Positions 9,818 to 32,473 of a stretch of DNA of 64,000 bases are shown here, piece by piece. Source of the DNA: Trueperaceae bacterium (GTDB lineage: Bacteria; Deinococcota; Deinococci; Deinococcales; Trueperaceae). The first letter of the stretch is position 1; the number at the start of each line of letters is the position of its first letter. The stretch is from positions 1,728,001 to 1,792,000 of the forward strand of contig OZ243927.1 of the NCBI GenBank assembly GCA_965213925.1. Reading direction: 5' to 3'. The notes beneath the pieces are model-generated. The model made no database searches and was not told the DNA's origin. It saw only the letters and a list, made by a program, of their open reading frames with translations. The translations under genes and the position numbers were made by a program.

Positions 9818-10283
9818 TTCACATTTTCAGAGAGTTATAGTTTTAAGTCGAATGCTGCCGCGTGCTCCCTCTGCTATCTCTACGTGATAAACGAAGGGTT
9901 GACATTCCTCGCTTTGCCATCAGCGTCATTCCAAAAAGAGCTACTACCTTTTAGAAGAGGGCTTGGGGTCGCGCCTGAGCCCTTTTCTTTGCGGAGTAGA
10001 TGCGAAGAACCAGCTCGAGGTGTAAAAAAGCCATGAGAAACGCCCTCGACAAGTCTTAACGTTTTACGCGGACCCTTTAACCGCGCCTCATCCAAACTTC
10101 ACAAACTACCCAGAGTATCTACCGCGAACCATTGCCCCTCAGGTGCCTAAGTCTGATACACTTGAGCCAACACCAACCGCAGCTCCCCCTAGGTCGCGGG
10201 AGCGCGTATTCTTTCGCTGACCCACGCGGCGAGCGGCTAAGCTGCGCTGCTTACGTGCTCTATTGCCTTTTAGGGGAGCTTTC

Positions 10284-11648
10284 ATGTCGGATGATTTCAC
10301 CTACCCTCTCACCCGCGTTTGCTTGCGTTCGGGGCAGCTCACCCTCCCCCAAAACATGCTCCACCTCTTTCCAGACGAAGGCACCGTCCACGTTCTCGAC
10401 ACGAGCACCGACGGCGAGTTCGAGCTGACCATGCGCACGCCCCGGCACGTGGCGGGGCTCTCCGAGTTTTTTGAGACGCACAACTTAGAGGTGAACGACC
10501 GGGTGAAACTGAAGCGGTTAGACGACGGGCGCGTCTCGCTGACCCCTCTAGTCCGCCCTAAAAAGACCGACTACGCGCGCCCCGAGATGGTGCGCGCCCT
10601 CTTAGAGAAGATTGTCGAACTCGCCCCGATGTCCGAAGCGGAAATTCGCAACGTCGCGCCCGACTTGCCCGCCGAGTTCGAGCTTAGGGAGCTTTTGGAA
10701 TCCGACGAACGTCTCGCGCTCAACCACGAAGGGCGCTGGGCGCTCTCGGACAAGGAGCGGACGAGGGAGCCGGGCGCGGACGAAGGCGAAGAAACGGCCT
10801 CTAAAGCGAGTCGTCCTACGGTGACCTCTTACGCACAGGACCGCGAGTTGGAGTACCTCTCGCTCAACTCGGCGGCGCAGGGCTTGGGCGACGCCACCCT
10901 CTTCACCCGCGCTAGGAGCGCCCTCCAAGCCTTCGGCTTCCGCGTCGAGGCGACCCCCCACGCGCAGCTTTTGGCCCACGCCGAGCTAGGCAGACACCAC
11001 TACAGCGCCCTTATCCACCTCCACAGCGAAGGTGCTAAGCCCGACTGGAACAAGCTAGTCACGCGCCGCCGCGAGGCGGGCGCGACCTACCTGGCGATCT
11101 TTGGGTCACACCGCGAACTGCTGCGCCTTCAGAAACACGCTGGTCAGTCGAAGGTCACGCTCTGGTCTTGGCAGGGCCTAACCCGCGCTCAGGACCTCTC
11201 TCAGAGCGTGCCGACGAGCCCCTTCGACCTGGAGCCGCATTTCGCCAGAGACGGGCTTTTCGACGCGGGGCTCGCCCGCTTCGAGCGCACTGTGCAGAGT
11301 CGCATCACCGAGCGCGGTCACTTCTCGCTCGTCTTGTCGCAGCTGGCGACGATGAGAGCGCCGACGGTCTTTCTGCTCGACGACGTGTTGACGGACGGAC
11401 ACTTTCCTAGGGACCAAGCGCTGAGCGTGTTAGAAGGACTTGCCCAAGCGCCCTTTCACATGGTCAGCAAGGTGGGCAGCGGCGAGTTTTGTCTGCGCGT
11501 AAACGTGTCCGAGACCTTGACGCACCTCTCCGACTACGCCCTGTCGCTCCGCGAGCGTTTGCCTACAAGACGCACCGAGCGGCTGCGCGGTACGGGTGAA
11601 GAGGTCGAGGAGACCGAGGCTAAGCAAACCAAGCAAGCGCGGGAGTAG
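10284..11648 (+). CDS. Hypothetical protein
   Basis: Long ORF with host-like codon usage; ATG 10284 after GGGGAG SD. Confidence 0.75.
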   Translation: MSDDFTYPLTRVCLRSGQLTLPQNMLHLFPDEGTVHVLDTSTDGEFELTMRTPRHVAGLSEFFETHNLEVNDRVKLKRLDDGRVSLTPLVRPKKTDYARPEMVRALLEKIVELAPMSEAEIRNVAPDLPAEFELRELLESDERLALNHEGRWALSDKERTREPGADEGEETASKASRPTVTSYAQDRELEYLSLNSAAQGLGDATLFTRARSALQAFGFRVEATPHAQLLAHAELGRHHYSALIHLHSEGAKPDWNKLVTRRREAGATYLAIFGSHRELLRLQKHAGQSKVTLWSWQGLTRAQDLSQSVPTSPFDLEPHFARDGLFDAGLARFERTVQSRITERGHFSLVLSQLATMRAPTVFLLDDVLTDGHFPRDQALSVLEGLAQAPFHMVSKVGSGEFCLRVNVSETLTHLSDYALSLRERLPTRRTERLRGTGEEVEETEAKQTKQARE

Positions 11649-11672
11649 GGGCGATTCATGAATCGCCCCTAC
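11645..11672. repeat. GTAG-type REP palindrome
   Basis: Perfect 28-bp palindrome GTAGGGGCGATTCATGAATCGCCCCTAC overlapping a stop codon between convergent genes. Confidence 0.8.
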
Positions 11673-11727
11673 GGGGTAGCGTTTTGAGGAGATAGAGCGT
11701 GTGGTTCGTCCTACGCGGTTAGCGTCA

Positions 11728-12165
11728 TCACGACGTCCTCGAGACGTACTCCTCTTCCTCTTCGAGGGTCTCATACCTGAGTTTCTCCAAACCCGCGAAG
11801 AGCGCGGAGAGCCCCGCCGCAAGTTCGATGCCTAAAATCATGAGGTTGAGTGGCGTCACCGCGAAGTCGATAGGTAGGATGCTCAAAAAGCGACCGAAGC
11901 CAATCGTGAGCCAGACGAAACTCGCCGCGAGCACCCAAGGCCGCCCCCGCGGCCGCGACGCGAGCCCCCACACCATCGCCGCCGCCACGCCGATAAAGAG
12001 CACGCCGAAAACCGCCCGCATCGTGCTGAGACCGCGCGGACCCTCGATGCTCAGCCCTACGAACTCCGACATGAAAAAGGGGTTAATGAGACCCAATATG
12101 CCTACGGCTAAAGTGAATAGCGCAGATACGTAGGCGAGCTGCGTGCGTTTGCTCATGCCCATCAT
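11728..12165 (-). CDS. Small membrane protein (DUF4345-like)
   Basis: About 4 hydrophobic segments; MRAVFG and GRFLS motifs. Confidence 0.7.
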   Translation of the reverse strand: MMGMSKRTQLAYVSALFTLAVGILGLINPFFMSEFVGLSIEGPRGLSTMRAVFGVLFIGVAAAMVWGLASRPRGRPWVLAASFVWLTIGFGRFLSILPIDFAVTPLNLMILGIELAAGLSALFAGLEKLRYETLEEEEEYVSRTS

Positions 12166-12533
12166 CCTACTTCTCGAGCCTTGCCGTCATAGCTTAAAAC
12201 GTGCACGTGCGTGTGAAAGACCTCTTGCCCCGCGCCCGCCCCGAGGTTGACGACGAGCCGGTAGTCCTTCACGTCGTTCGCGCGCGCCGCTCTAACCGCC
12301 GCCTCGAAAAGCGCCCCCACGTCCTCCTTGCCCTGCGCGTCCAACATCTCGTCTAGGCGCGGGCTGTGCTTTTTAGGGACTACCAGAAAGTGAACCGGCG
12401 CTTTAGGCTGAATGTCCTTAAAGGCTAAAAAGTGCTCATCCTCGTACACGCGGTCCGCAGAGATGTCACCGTCGATAATTTTTTGGAAGATGCTCCGGTT
12501 GTCTGCGCTGTCTTTGCCGCTCTCGTTCGCCAT
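12162..12533 (-). CDS. HIT-family nucleotide-binding protein
   Basis: SIFQKII, PKAPVHFLVVPK, GQEVFHTHVH triad; start reassigned to ATG 12533. Confidence 0.92.
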   Translation of the reverse strand: MANESGKDSADNRSIFQKIIDGDISADRVYEDEHFLAFKDIQPKAPVHFLVVPKKHSPRLDEMLDAQGKEDVGALFEAAVRAARANDVKDYRLVVNLGAGAGQEVFHTHVHVLSYDGKAREVG

Positions 12534-12636
12534 AATGAGGTAGTTTACCCGAAGGCGCAGCTCGGTGTCGGAACTTGCGCCCAGATGAAAAACTTCACCC
12601 CCCCGGTCAGCGCGACAAGTGTTACCATAATAAGCT

Positions 12637-12942
12637 GTGACGCTCCGCCTATTTTTTCTGACGATTCTCGTTCTAGCGCTCCCGCTGCCCGTGCAGCCTT
12701 GGGGCGTTAGCAGCGACGAATCCTCGGGCATGAGCGCGCCTGTGCCGATGGTCGCGGAGCCTGCGCAGCGCCTTATCCTGCCGAGAGTCGGTAAGAACAG
12801 TTTTCACCTCTTGCCCCCGCTCATCGCCAGTTTCACGGTTGCCGTATGCGCCGCGCGCCTCATCACGTCGAAACGCCTAACGGGCGCCGCGCGGCGGCGC
12901 ACCTTCTTGGTGTTCGGGAAGTTGAGGCTCGAGGGGGGCTAA
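12637..12942 (+). CDS. Signal-peptide/TM upstream ORF of secDF, candidate arrest peptide
   Basis: Hydrophobic N-terminus MTLRLFFLTILVLALPLP; C-terminus RRRTFLVFGKLRLEGG-stop; same strand, directly before secDF. Confidence 0.65.
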   Translation: MTLRLFFLTILVLALPLPVQPWGVSSDESSGMSAPVPMVAEPAQRLILPRVGKNSFHLLPPLIASFTVAVCAARLITSKRLTGAARRRTFLVFGKLRLEGG

Positions 12943-13037
12943 AAGCAGCGATTAGCTTTTAGCAAAAGCCTCTAAGCTAACGGCTAACAGCCTTTCACCC
13001 AATCTCGAGACTCAATCCTCTTAACAGAGCAACTCAG

Positions 13038-13269
13038 TACTCTGTTAATTAAAAGATGAGTGATGTCATTCTAAACGGAGCCCTACGGCGAGCGTAGGAT
13101 AGACTCCGCGGAGTGAAAGAATCTCTGACCTTGCTGACTCCTCTGACAGAGAACGAAAGTTACAGAGTTTTGGCATAGCCAAACGAGACCCTTACGCCTT
13201 CGCCGGACTTCGTCTGACTGCGTGAACAGGGTGACATGTAAGAGGTATCAAAACTAACTTAACAGTGCA
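13038..13269 (+). mobile_element. MITE family A copy 2
   Basis: TIRs TACTCTGTTAATTAAA / AACTAACTTAACAGTGCA; CTCAG duplicated at 13033-13037 and 13270-13274. Confidence 0.9.
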
Positions 13270-13283
13270 CTCAGGAGAAAAAT

Positions 13284-15500
13284 ATGAATCAACGCTCATT
13301 CACGGGCATCCTCGTCCTTGGCGTTCTACTCGCCGCCATTCTTTACATGTGGCAGCCGTGGGCGGAGGACGCCTCGCTCAAACTCGGCTTAGACTTGCAG
13401 GGCGGCTTGCGCGTCGTTTTGCAAGCTGACGACCCCGACCCCGTACCCGAAGACCTCCAGGCAGCGCGGCGCGTTATCGAAAACCGCGTCAACGAGTTCG
13501 GCGTGGCGGAGCCCATCATTCAGACCTCGGGCGCGAACCGCATCGTCGTCGAGCTGCCCGGCTTGACGGCGGAGGAGCAAAACCGCGCGCAAGACCTCAT
13601 CGGACAACAAGCGATTTTAGAGTTTCGCCTCGTCAGACCGGGCGCGAGCGAACCCCTCACGCCGGACAAGCTGCAACCCGCTTCCTTCACGGGTGAGGTG
13701 CTGCGCGGCGCGCAAGTGGCGTACGACCAGTTCGGCCAGCCGATTGTTACCTTCCAGATTCGCGGGGCTGACGCGCCCGCGTTCGGGCAGTTTACGGGCA
13801 GCAACTTGGGGCAGCGCATGGCGGTCGTCTTGGACGGCAACGTCATCACCGCGCCCAACATCAACGGGCGCATCGCCGAGAGCGGGCAGATCGAGGGGCA
13901 GTTCACACTCGAGGAAGCCTCCGACTTAGCCCTCGTCCTCCGCTCGGGCAGCCTTCCCATCTCGCTCAACATCGAAGAGATTCGCGCCATCGGCCCGACG
14001 TTGGGTCAGGACTCGGTCGCAGCCGGTACGACCGCCGCGATTATCGGCGGTATCGCCGTCGTCGCCGCGGTTATTCTCTACTACGGTCCACTTTTCGGCG
14101 GCGTTTTGACGGTCGGTCTCATCTACGTCTTGCTCCTCATCTTCGGCATCCTCTCCGGTCTCGGCGCGGCGCTCACGCTGCCCGGTCTGGCCGGTCTCGT
14201 CTTGACCATCGGCGCGGCGGTGGACGGCAACGTCATCTCGTTTGAGCGCATCAAAGAGGAGCTGCGCGAAGGCAAAAGCCTGCGCCTCTCCATGCGGAGC
14301 GGTTTCAGCAACTCGCTCTCGGCGATCATCGACGCGAACGTCACGACGCTTTTAGCGGCGGCGGCGCTGTACCAGTACACCTCGGGTCCGGTGCGCGGCT
14401 TCGCTATCACGTTAGCCATCGGCATCGTGTCGGCGGTCTTTGTGAACACCGTCGTCGTGCCCTTTTTGCTCGACGTGCTCACGGTGCGCTTCAAAAAGCC
14501 GCTCATGCCCAAAGGTTTTTACTTCACCGACCTCAAGTTCGTTTCGCGTGCGCCCATCGTTATGAGCATCTCGGGCGGACTCGCGCTCTTGGCGCTCCTC
14601 ATCGTCATCGTGAGCCCCTTAAACCTCTCGACGGACTTCACGGGCGGCACGAGCGCGCTCTATAGCGTCTCGGAAGAGACGACCATCGACGAGGTGCGCA
14701 CCGCCATCAGCGAACTCAGGCTGCCCGGCGTGGACGGCGGCTCGGCGACGGTGCAAGAGGTGCAAGACACCACGATTCGTACAGAGGGAGGTGCAGAAGG
14801 CGGCACGGACGACGCCGAAGCAGCAGCGGGCGCGAACAAACTCCTCTCGGTGCGTATCGGCGTTAGCGAGGACAGCGGGGCGCGGGGTGAATTTCCGAAC
14901 CTCTTAGCGGAGCGGCTTGACGCGGAACTCTTGCAGGCCGACTTCGTCGGTCCCTCCGTCGGCGAAGACCTGCGCAACGGCGCGGTCTTGGCGGTGCTCG
15001 TCTCGCTCGGGCTGATCTTGCTCTACGTCGGGCTGCGCTTCTGGCCGAACTGGATCGTCGCGGTCGCCGCGATTCTGGCGTCGATTCACGACGTCGGCAT
15101 CGTGATGGGCTTTTTGGACCTCATCGGCGCAGAGTTCGGCGTGCCCGTTTTGGCGGCGCTTCTCTTCGTTGTCGGTTACTCCTTAAACGACTCCATCATC
15201 ATCGCGGACAGAATTCGCGAGAACTTGCGCAAGGTGCGCGGGCGTTCGTACAACGACATCATCGACCTTTCGGTGAGCCAGACGCTCTCGCGCACCGTCG
15301 TGACCTCGGGCACGACGCTCCTGCCCGTGTTGGCGCTCCTCTTCTTCGGCGGCAGCGTCTTGCGCGACTTCAGCATCACGCTCCTAGTGGGCATCGGCTT
15401 CGGGACGTACTCGAGCATCTTCATCCTCGCCCCGATGGTGGCGTGGTTCAAGAAGCGTCAGCGCAAGCCTAAGACCGCGGTGCGTAAAAGCGCAGCTTAA
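13284..15500 (+). CDS. secDF: Protein translocase SecDF (fused)
   Basis: LGLDLQGG, IGAAVDGNV, DFTGG, GYSLNDSIIIADRIREN. Confidence 0.95.
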   Translation: MNQRSFTGILVLGVLLAAILYMWQPWAEDASLKLGLDLQGGLRVVLQADDPDPVPEDLQAARRVIENRVNEFGVAEPIIQTSGANRIVVELPGLTAEEQNRAQDLIGQQAILEFRLVRPGASEPLTPDKLQPASFTGEVLRGAQVAYDQFGQPIVTFQIRGADAPAFGQFTGSNLGQRMAVVLDGNVITAPNINGRIAESGQIEGQFTLEEASDLALVLRSGSLPISLNIEEIRAIGPTLGQDSVAAGTTAAIIGGIAVVAAVILYYGPLFGGVLTVGLIYVLLLIFGILSGLGAALTLPGLAGLVLTIGAAVDGNVISFERIKEELREGKSLRLSMRSGFSNSLSAIIDANVTTLLAAAALYQYTSGPVRGFAITLAIGIVSAVFVNTVVVPFLLDVLTVRFKKPLMPKGFYFTDLKFVSRAPIVMSISGGLALLALLIVIVSPLNLSTDFTGGTSALYSVSEETTIDEVRTAISELRLPGVDGGSATVQEVQDTTIRTEGGAEGGTDDAEAAAGANKLLSVRIGVSEDSGARGEFPNLLAERLDAELLQADFVGPSVGEDLRNGAVLAVLVSLGLILLYVGLRFWPNWIVAVAAILASIHDVGIVMGFLDLIGAEFGVPVLAALLFVVGYSLNDSIIIADRIRENLRKVRGRSYNDIIDLSVSQTLSRTVVTSGTTLLPVLALLFFGGSVLRDFSITLLVGIGFGTYSSIFILAPMVAWFKKRQRKPKTAVRKSAA

Positions 15501-18378: not shown

Positions 18379-18584
18379 TACACTGTTAAGCAAAAAATGA
18401 ACCATGTCATTCTGAACGAAACGAAGTGAAGTGAAAGAATCTCTGCCCTTGCTGACTCCTCTTGCAGAGAGTGCGAGTTACAAAGTTTTGACGTAGTCAA
18501 ACGAGACCCTCACGCCTTCGCCGGACTTCGTCTGACTGCGTGAACAGGGTGACAACAGTGTTGCAGAATTTAGTTGACAGTGTA
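18379..18584 (+). mobile_element. MITE family A copy 4
   Basis: TACACTGTTAAGCAAA ... TTTAGTTGACAGTGTA; flanks CTAAC / CTCAT. Confidence 0.9.
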
Positions 18585-18643
18585 CTCATCATGTCGGTCT
18601 CTCGCCACTATACCTCTTCGCTCGAGCAAGTTTAGATAACCCC

Positions 18644-32239: not shown

Positions 32240-32473
32240 CACACCGTTAAGCAAGTATTGCTACTTATTAGTATGTCACCCTGTTCACGAAGTAGAGCGG
32301 AGCTTCGCCGAAGGCGTGAGGGTCTCGTTTAGCTACGCTAAAACTCTGTAACTTTCATTCTCTGTCAGAGGAGTCAGCAAGGGCAGAGATTCTTACACTC
32401 CGCGGAGTCTATCCTACGCCCGCCGTAGGGCTCCGTTCAGAATGACACGACTTATTTTTTACTTAACGCTGTA
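32240..32473 (-). mobile_element. MITE family A copy 5
   Basis: CACACCGTTAAGCAAG ... TTTACTTAACGCTGTA; inner modules in reverse orientation; no clean target duplication. Confidence 0.88.

Follow-up and report, generated by a model that had tools for sequence, protein, structure and literature searches.

A candidate secretion-monitoring leader peptide encoded directly upstream of secDF in Deinococcota

What does the short reading frame directly in front of secDF encode in a member of the Trueperaceae, and does its product act on secDF? The question is raised by a stretch of 64,000 nucleotides (nt) from a Trueperaceae bacterium (GenBank assembly GCA_965213925.1, contig OZ243927.1, positions 1,728,001 to 1,792,000 of the forward strand), which is called the window here and numbered from its first letter. 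A sequence-only reading of the window had described a frame of 101 amino acids (aa) with a distinctive tail on the secDF strand, directly upstream of this gene. This upstream open reading frame (uORF) was confirmed at 12637..12942 (+). Based on comparative sequence analysis, we propose that the uORF encodes a Sec-targeted regulatory nascent peptide, which would represent a new family of translation-arrest peptides monitoring secretion on behalf of secDF throughout the Deinococcota, and we give this reading a probability of roughly 55%. Several phyla have known arrest peptides that monitor export, and the literature searched describes none for Deinococcota. The following parts of the locus carry the argument.

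12637..12942, plus strand: uORF, candidate secDF leader or arrest peptide; GTG start, 101 codons (101 aa), TAA stop
12637..12699, plus strand: export signal or signal-anchor at the N-terminus (residues 1-21: Arg4, then LFFLTILVLALPLPV; Kyte-Doolittle hydropathy, AlphaFold2)
12727..12771, plus strand: mid motif GMSAPVPMVAEPAQR, residues 31-45; consensus GMxAPxPxxLExxxR in alignment A1
12817..12819, plus strand: near-invariant Pro61 (conservation of 90% or more across 44 sequences), 41 residues before the C-terminal end
12904..12942, plus strand: C-terminal motif FLVFGKLRLEGG and stop codon, the proposed stall element (64-sequence logo)
13284..15500, plus strand: fused secDF, 738 aa, the presumed regulated gene (Pfam matches)

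The uORF protein reads MTLRLFFLTILVLALPLPVQPW...RRRTFLVFGKLRLEGG, with RRRTFLVFGKLRLEGG directly before the stop codon. The secDF product matched the Pfam families SecD_SecF_C (E 4.9e-75), SecDF_P1_head, SecD_1st and Sec_GG. Both genes are separated by a spacer of 341 nt (12943..13283), which is mostly filled by a 242-nt element resembling a miniature inverted-repeat transposable element (MITE).

Selection on the uORF was assessed by the Nei-Gojobori method in pairwise comparisons among three congeners (G000, which is the window genome, G001 and G002). The ratio of non-synonymous to synonymous substitution rates (dN/dS) was 0.11, 0.20 and 0.09 for the three pairs, with dS at least 1.15. Differences at the first, second and third codon positions numbered 19/10/45, 25/19/50 and 27/13/54, respectively, and the last 16 codons of G000 and G001 differ by seven synonymous changes and one non-synonymous change. 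In G001 and G002 the frame is open directly upstream of secDF, with gaps of 83 and 121 nt. The uORF remains beside secDF in these two genomes despite a VapBC-like gene pair, absent from G000, which sits between the HIT-family gene and the uORF. Synonymous codon variation was observed at every conserved tail position among 64 Trueperaceae members. Gly-1 (counted back from the stop codon), for example, is encoded by GGC (34), GGG (13), GGT (10) and GGA (7), and the codons of Arg-7 include CGG (19), CGC (9), AGG (9) and CGA (5). Since the conserved tail positions use many synonymous codons, selection acts on the peptide and not on the bases. Judged by these substitution patterns, the uORF is a genuine gene under purifying selection.

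The occurrence of the tail is far beyond chance. Among 47,289 stop-to-stop ORFs of at least 50 aa in the window genome only three end in L[ED]GG, and the uORF alone has the full motif. In 87 stretches upstream of secDF, 65 of 483 frames of at least 35 aa on the sense strand end in the motif, compared to 0 of 435 on the antisense strand. It is scarcely credible that the uORF is a chance frame in GC-rich intergenic DNA, or that it marks a conserved non-coding RNA or promoter region. This explanation could draw on the many spurious ORFs of a GC-rich genome, on an over-extended antisense ORF that overlaps the uORF start and on the absence of the exact window protein from a large protein collection. 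A chance frame is contradicted by the third-position excess and the dN/dS of 0.09-0.20, by a reading frame that is open across five families and by the calling of 76-83% identical proteins in metagenomes, and an Rfam scan of positions 11500-14000 at E up to 1 matched nothing that would point to a non-coding RNA. Synonymous codon diversity together with dN/dS excludes a chance ORF.

How far the uORF extends beyond the genus was first a matter of its own family. Including the unpublished genome G110, which was left out of later work, secDF was located in 119 of 128 Trueperaceae genomes. The sample consisted of 87 secDF-upstream stretches (30 loci and 57 usable of 60 further fetched), from which ORFs on the secDF strand ending [LTDSQNF][EDG]GG-stop were selected. 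A uORF was found in 64 of the 87 stretches (24/30 in the first set and 40/57 in the second), always on the secDF strand and directly upstream, ending 39-408 nt before secDF. Three more loci from two genera have the same build, with the stop codon straight after ...QWRL, ...RWQL or ...GRLQL. In Trueperaceae that carry it, the uORF is inserted between infB and secDF. In most uORF-less Trueperaceae the infB stop codon abuts or overlaps the secDF start (gap -4 to -7; loci L046, L048, L049, L089, L090, L100, L103, L104 and others), which fits a dispensable regulatory insert.

A profile built from 44 Trueperaceae members was searched over 201 genomes of the phylum and matched in 22 genomes, which belong to three further families of the order (f2-f4; Thermus-, Meiothermus- and Oceanithermus-like). 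All 21 fetched matches lie directly before secDF. Their endings include ...YGRLQMDGG, ...ARLQLEGG, ...SRLQTDGG, ...MRLQLEGG, ...RRQLEGG and ...GRRQAEGG. One of these members is identical to BAD70521.1 / Q5SKE5_THET8 of Thermus thermophilus, a 92-aa "hypothetical protein"; similar endings on hypothetical proteins of Deinococcota, which the sequence-only reading had mentioned, thus do exist. The profile matched none of 83 Deinococcus genomes. Direct inspection, however, revealed ...LGRRQ(T/S)DGG-stop before secDF in five of five Deinococcus genomes, so that a profile-negative genome does not necessarily lack the uORF. At named Deinococcus loci the uORF was present in 24 of 30, two of them ending ...GRWQLEG; of the remaining loci, three end ...DGA and three had less than 390 nt of upstream sequence. 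In a further family (f5), ...ARFSRWNE-stop or ...WYSRWLE-stop precedes secDF in 4/4 genomes. Among 40 secDF loci inspected from other phyla, a uORF of such build was found in none.

The upstream frame and a C-terminal motif before secDF thus recur in all five sampled families of the order, which clearly passes the test that the sequence-only reading had set for its own refutation. As far as the endings compared here show, a core [L/F]-[G/S/Q]-R-[L/W]-[Q/N] beside the stop codon is order-wide, and the (E/D)GG extension is common, not universal. The earlier emphasis on an EGG/DGG ending was therefore right for a widespread form and did not hold for lineages that stop after ...QL or ...RWNE, or that end in DGA or LEG.

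Database searches gave few handles on the family. A search with the window uORF as single query matched only the two congeners among 40 relatives, because the family is too divergent for one query sequence. Neither the window uORF in Pfam nor any of the 44 members in Pfam and NCBIfam matched a family. This includes YajC (PF02699), without a match at E up to 0.1 for the window uORF and up to 0.01 for the members, in agreement with the earlier remark that the peptide does not resemble YajC. Relatives with database names are hypothetical proteins without a Pfam domain, the T. thermophilus entries likewise, and the near-identical proteins called in metagenomes show 76-83% identity. The ESM Atlas contributed only generic small secreted-protein clusters. 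The sole match of a profile search of the PDB (E 0.32) was taken as chance.

The members share a common build. In the alignments the common elements are a signal-like N-terminus, the motif GMxxPxPxxE, a near-invariant Pro and the tail LxxLGRLQL(E/D)GG-stop. The N-terminal segment of the window protein, proposed earlier to be a signal or transmembrane segment, has a Kyte-Doolittle mean of 2.61 over 15 residues and is predicted as a helix (residues 3-14) by AlphaFold2. A hydrophobic 15-mer (1.6-2.8 on the same scale) is present at the N-terminus of 64/64 members, and relatives of 100-130 aa from gene callers start M-A/T-R, followed by a hydrophobic core and an A-x-A-like end, as Sec signal peptides do. 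The signal call rests on hydropathy, this N-terminal pattern and the predicted helix.

The tail logo of the 64 sequences reads L-12 xx [LF]-9 G-8 R-7 [LRW]-6 Q-5 L-4 [ED]-3 G G stop. At positions outside the selection rule, L-12 was found in 43/64, L/F-9 in 46/64, G-8 in 37/64, R-7 in 42/64 and Q-5 in 37/64. Conservation is highest in the last 12 residues and drops to about 0.8-1.2 bits at positions -14 to -22. It was not confined to these last 12 residues, the pattern that the sequence-only reading had proposed to test for; the mid motif, one Pro and the total length of the tether are conserved too. The tether, measured from the hydrophobic segment to the C-terminus, comprises 81-92 residues in 59/64 members (median 88, minimum 81). 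Counted from the GM motif, the C-terminus is 67-77 residues away in 49 of 56 members scored, the seven outliers resulting from a crude motif pick. Between the motifs the protein is hypervariable and of low complexity, and mean column identity in the 44-sequence alignment A1 is 23%. On the same 44 rows AlphaFold2 predicted no globular fold (predicted TM-score, pTM, 0.25; mean local confidence, pLDDT, 69). Helices were predicted only for residues 3-14 (pLDDT about 90) and 62-97, and the final EGG was unstructured.

The 64 uORFs stop with TGA (50), TAA (13) and TAG (1). The near absence of the stop codon read only by release factor 1 (RF1) may hint at RF2, judged from these 64 stop codons. A second strongly hydrophobic stretch was noticed in the window protein (residues 58-76, 12808-12864) and at loci L080, L081, L110, L063 and L073. 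It lies 15-40 residues before the C-terminus, a position that would be inside the ribosomal tunnel with a ribosome at the stop codon, and most family members are without it.

Could such a peptide monitor secretion? Fujiwara et al. 2024 set out four in-silico criteria for arrest peptides that monitor Sec or YidC (PMC10987492), and the uORF shows the features asked for by all four, with a new motif. With regard to the first, the uORF is small, carries no functional annotation and lies on the same strand immediately before secDF. It encodes an N-terminal secretion signal or transmembrane segment (ii), and more than 30 residues separate the signal from the end of the conserved motif (iv). The third criterion is borne out by the logo, alignment A1, the other families and the antisense and genome-wide controls.

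Among arrest peptides encoded ahead of secDF, those that stall at the stop codon already form an established class (PMC10987492). A close parallel is provided by uDF_NAP-stop and uA_NSP-stop of Bacteroidota, where a small signal-bearing ORF likewise sits directly before secDF or secA and the motif is exactly C-terminal (PMC10987492). These peptides stall with the stop codon in the A site and a last residue that is slowly hydrolysed by release factors (PMC10987492). They end in Pro (N-A-P and N-S-P), whereas the uORF ends in Gly-Gly after an acidic residue, behind LxxLGRLQL. A C-terminal Pro before the stop codon was never found; the 64 selected members end in Gly-Gly and the variants in L, E, A or G. 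The uORF further differs in its phylum, the lack of sequence similarity, its fixed tether and two extra conserved elements, and its arrest is a prediction, as compared with the peptides of that study (PMC10987492).

In Clostridia, uDF_DGMK-stop and LudP are also encoded before secDF and combine a signal peptide with a compact C-terminal element, in which an essential acidic residue is followed by Gly (D-G-x-K) (PMC10987492; 10.64898/2026.10.26.761930). The nascent chain of LudP forms a helix in the tunnel, and its element causes elongation or termination arrest depending on the position of the stop codon (10.64898/2026.10.26.761930). This dependence resembles the variation between LEGG-stop, QL-stop and RWNE-stop in the uORF family. 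Motif and stop spacing differ (D-G-M-K-stop compared to E/D-G-G-stop), homology is not detectable and the phylum is another. A D-G-M/E-K motif is not present, the uORF tail being without Lys, and only the acidic-Gly pair is in common. Known stop-codon arresters end in Pro or DGMK.

VemP of Vibrio (before secD2F2) is, like the uORF product, a secreted monitor encoded before secDF. SecDF-assisted translocation is required to relieve its arrest, and within the tunnel its nascent chain forms a helix (PMC5449182). In contrast to the uORF, VemP undergoes elongation arrest at an unrelated 19-residue motif, has a long spacer (median 133) and relies on a stem that sequesters the Shine-Dalgarno (SD) sequence; folds of the uORF spacers gave no such stem. 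SecM, ApdA, ApdP and the RQH family show the same order of export signal, spacer and C-terminal motif upstream of a sec gene. A motif like the R-A-P-P or R-A-G-P of SecM, ApcA, ApdA, ApdP and RQH occurs in none of the 64 tails, as the sequence-only reading had anticipated, and Pro is outside the six commonest residues at each of the last 13 positions of the logo. By sequence, the uORF motif matches none of the published RAPP-like, NAP, NSP, DGMK, LPPP and KYxIW motifs.

Full-text literature searches for arrest peptides with secDF, Deinococcus or Thermus returned no description of the uORF family. The main texts of PMC10987492, PMC7897499, PMC12992588 and the LudP preprint do not mention Deinococcus, Thermus or Truepera. 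The genome list of Fujiwara et al. includes Deinococcota and their candidate table has no Deinococcota row, though raw uORF clusters may be in other supplements (PMC10987492). According to the LudP preprint, further candidates from this dataset exist (10.64898/2026.10.26.761930).

Under the proposed nascent-peptide reading, the cycle could run as follows. The 12-residue tail, predicted to be helical up to Leu-4, would occupy the upper exit tunnel and slow peptide release or the last peptidyl transfers. Gly-Gly at the peptidyl-transferase center would add to this pause, because Gly is the slowest residue for hydrolysis by release factors. In a eukaryotic assay Gly before the stop codon gave the slowest peptide release, and the rates correlated with those of bacterial RF1/RF2 (r 0.94-0.98; PMC10802582). 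The ribosome would pause at the stop codon or just before it, and a tether of 81-92 residues would then leave about 45-55 residues outside the tunnel. The GMxxPxPxxE segment would be placed in or just beyond the SecYEG channel, where a translocation pull, possibly exerted by the SecDF P1 head, would free the paused ribosome. Poor export would lead to a longer pause and to more secDF expression.

A stricter version of this mechanism is a phylum-wide SecDF sensor of the ruler type. Here, LxxLGRLQL(E/D)GG would be a new tunnel motif that causes a stall at or beside the stop codon and exploits slow release after Gly, and the fixed tether (81-92) would hold GMxxPxPxxE where SecYEG opens into the periplasm. 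The ribosome would be set free solely by a pull of the SecDF P1 head, and the stall would govern the access of Rho to a C-rich spacer instead of acting through an SD switch. We regard this version as tentative and, taken as a whole, unlikely. A Gly-Gly-stop family with a fixed tether and a motif early in the mature part would, if true, be a new way of stalling the ribosome and a rare case of conserved nascent-chain geometry between ribosome and translocon. It would also provide a candidate role for a widespread "hypothetical protein" and may explain how SecDF is tuned in a phylum whose searched genomes show no recognisable YajC. Structures have been solved for both SecDF and the ribosome of T. 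thermophilus, and thermophile ribosomes are a classic structural model. With family members in T. thermophilus and Deinococcus the idea is directly testable, and if the ruler version is true the whole cycle is open to study with thermophile ribosomes.

Several observations weigh against an export-sensitive arrest that controls secDF. About 20 of the 87 Trueperaceae stretches are without the uORF (two of them with less than 230 nt inspectable), and the genomes are related, so that all counts overstate independence. Two Trueperaceae genera (...QWRL-stop, ...GRLQL-stop) and f5 (...SRWNE-stop) have no EGG, Deinococcus has three DGA and two LEG endings, and one FGGG ending was seen; given this variation, the mechanism must involve more than Gly-Gly-stop. 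The narrow uORF tether is also unlike the spacers of published secA and secDF monitors, which are long and variable (PMC10987492). In the window itself the MITE-like element parts the uORF from secDF. For 56 spacers of at most 200 nt, the median unpaired probability of the secDF SD was 0.26 in the free RNA and 0.27 with the footprint of a ribosome at the stop codon, and accessibility increased by more than 0.3 in only one of the 56. RNAalifold on 12 Thermus-like spacers yielded only a hairpin within the last codons, where covariation was low (covariation term -1.04 kcal/mol), and this result was not counted as evidence. A model in which the stalled ribosome unmasks a sequestered SD received no support and was set aside, as folding of the 56 spacers with and without ribosome showed no change.

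The composition of the spacer suggests another route. C exceeds G in 60 of 64 spacers with a median skew of +0.24, compared to a median of 0.00 in 1,821 crude 5' regions of the window genome, and in Deinococcus pyrimidine tracts lie ahead of the secDF SD. Rho was found, with positive controls in T. thermophilus and Deinococcus radiodurans. One conceivable precedent for a C-rich spacer poor in G is the tna operon of E. coli, where TnaC stalls at its stop codon and the leader ORF is immediately followed by a C-rich Rho loading site. Unlike the uORF product, TnaC is a cytoplasmic peptide without export signal; it responds to tryptophan, and its last residue is Pro. Since the spacer is C-rich and G-poor and Rho is present, control of Rho loading is a candidate mechanism; the composition suggests a TnaC-like block of Rho loading and not SD unmasking.

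The same features could be read as those of a leader peptide that acts merely by being translated, through Rho polarity, re-initiation or mRNA protection, without export-sensitive arrest. We consider this quite improbable. The C-rich, G-poor composition of 60/64 spacers, the presence of Rho and the lack of an SD-sequestering switch in the folded spacers are all compatible with it, and the ATG of the Thermus uORF, 5 nt past the infB stop codon, suggests a translationally linked chain infB-uORF-secDF. A leader of this kind could do without an export signal, a mid motif, a fixed length or a tail conserved in its amino acids, and yet selection was seen on the residues and not on the bases. In four RNA libraries, single contigs carry infB, uORF and secDF together (4/4 runs). 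As such contigs reveal neither transcript nor ends or level and may stem from DNA, they were not used for co-transcription.

A serious alternative, which we hold to be rather unlikely, is that the uORF product works as a small protein in its own right, either secreted or anchored in the membrane (a SecDF partner in the place of YajC, for instance), the conserved motifs being protein contacts and the tail serving binding or turnover. YajC is a small single-span protein that in many bacteria is encoded directly before secD or secDF. Its topology differs from that of an N-in signal peptide. YajC (PF02699) was found at cut-off in 0 of 31 Deinococcota genomes compared to 7 of 14 control genomes, which leaves the slot before secDF to the uORF and makes a YajC-like accessory protein worth weighing. 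T. thermophilus and Deinococcus radiodurans were among the 14 controls and not among the seven YajC-positive genomes. YajC is similar in size to the uORF product (about 92-130 aa) and likewise has an N-terminal hydrophobic segment, the fixed length and the three distinct conserved elements might be those of a defined complex, and some lineages, that of the window included, have the second hydrophobic stretch (residues 58-76).

On the other hand, none of the 44 members matches YajC or any other family. The positive n-region and the A-x-A-like signal end indicate an N-in signal peptide, unlike the topology of YajC. The uORF product is further set apart from YajC by a disordered body that is hypervariable between the motifs (23% mean column identity, pTM 0.25), and by its strongest conservation, which abuts the stop codon in every lineage. 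Moreover, the uORF was lost repeatedly where secDF was kept.

Three further features of the window surround the uORF.

12619..12631, plus strand: conserved block GTGTTACCATAAT with -10-like CATAAT (12626-12631), 5 nt before the GTG
12947..12991, plus strand: short dispersed repeat of ~45 nt in the spacer, an inverted-repeat pair around AGCTAACGGCT
13033..13274, plus strand: MITE-like element, 242 nt, inserted after the uORF and ahead of the ribosome-binding site of secDF

The block GTGTTACCATAAT is kept in the three congeners while the flanking bases diverge. Its -10-like element 5 nt before the GTG suggests a leaderless uORF transcript. A consensus promoter and terminator scan of 12480-13320 found neither, and no -35/-10 pair, so that the block is to be regarded as a footprint and not as a demonstrated promoter.

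The spacer insertion is called MITE-like because of its repeat copies and terminal inverted repeats. The repeat (~13027-13274) has 48 further matches of 71-95% identity in the same 4.7-Mb genome, several of them within the window, and its termini (13033-13048 and 13259-13274) form inverted repeats of 16 nt with 81% complementarity. The sequence-only reading had recognised this MITE and calculated that its removal leaves about 104 nt to the secDF start; the element stands, and the remaining distance is 93-99 nt. The element is absent at the homologous site in G001 and G002. In the window the uORF is intact and conserved compared to these congeners. The secDF SD (AGGAG, 13273-13277) takes its first two bases from the end of the element. 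With the MITE now between uORF and SD, coupling may be altered in the window genome. The fold of the MITE RNA was unremarkable (z-score -1.77). The ~45-nt repeat recurs in all three genomes of the genus (G000, G001 and G002); at the site between uORF and secDF it is present in G002 and not in G001.

Upstream of the uORF, the ORF listed for the HIT-family gene has 189 aa (12162..12731, minus strand) and runs antisense over the uORF start. Comparison with the congener G002 places its real start most likely at the ATG at 12533 (123 aa), the longer upstream frame being spurious, and hence there would be no true overlap with the uORF. The VapBC-like pair of G001 and G002 consists, by eye from the translations, of an AbrB/MazE-like antitoxin and a PIN-like toxin (L002 683-1431, L003 722-1396). 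Other copies of the MITE-like element in the window lie at about 18430-18588 (+) and 32242-32467 (-). A 461-aa ORF at 10263-11648 (+), which matched no other Pfam family, gave a weak N-terminal AbrB/MazE-like match (E 0.084).

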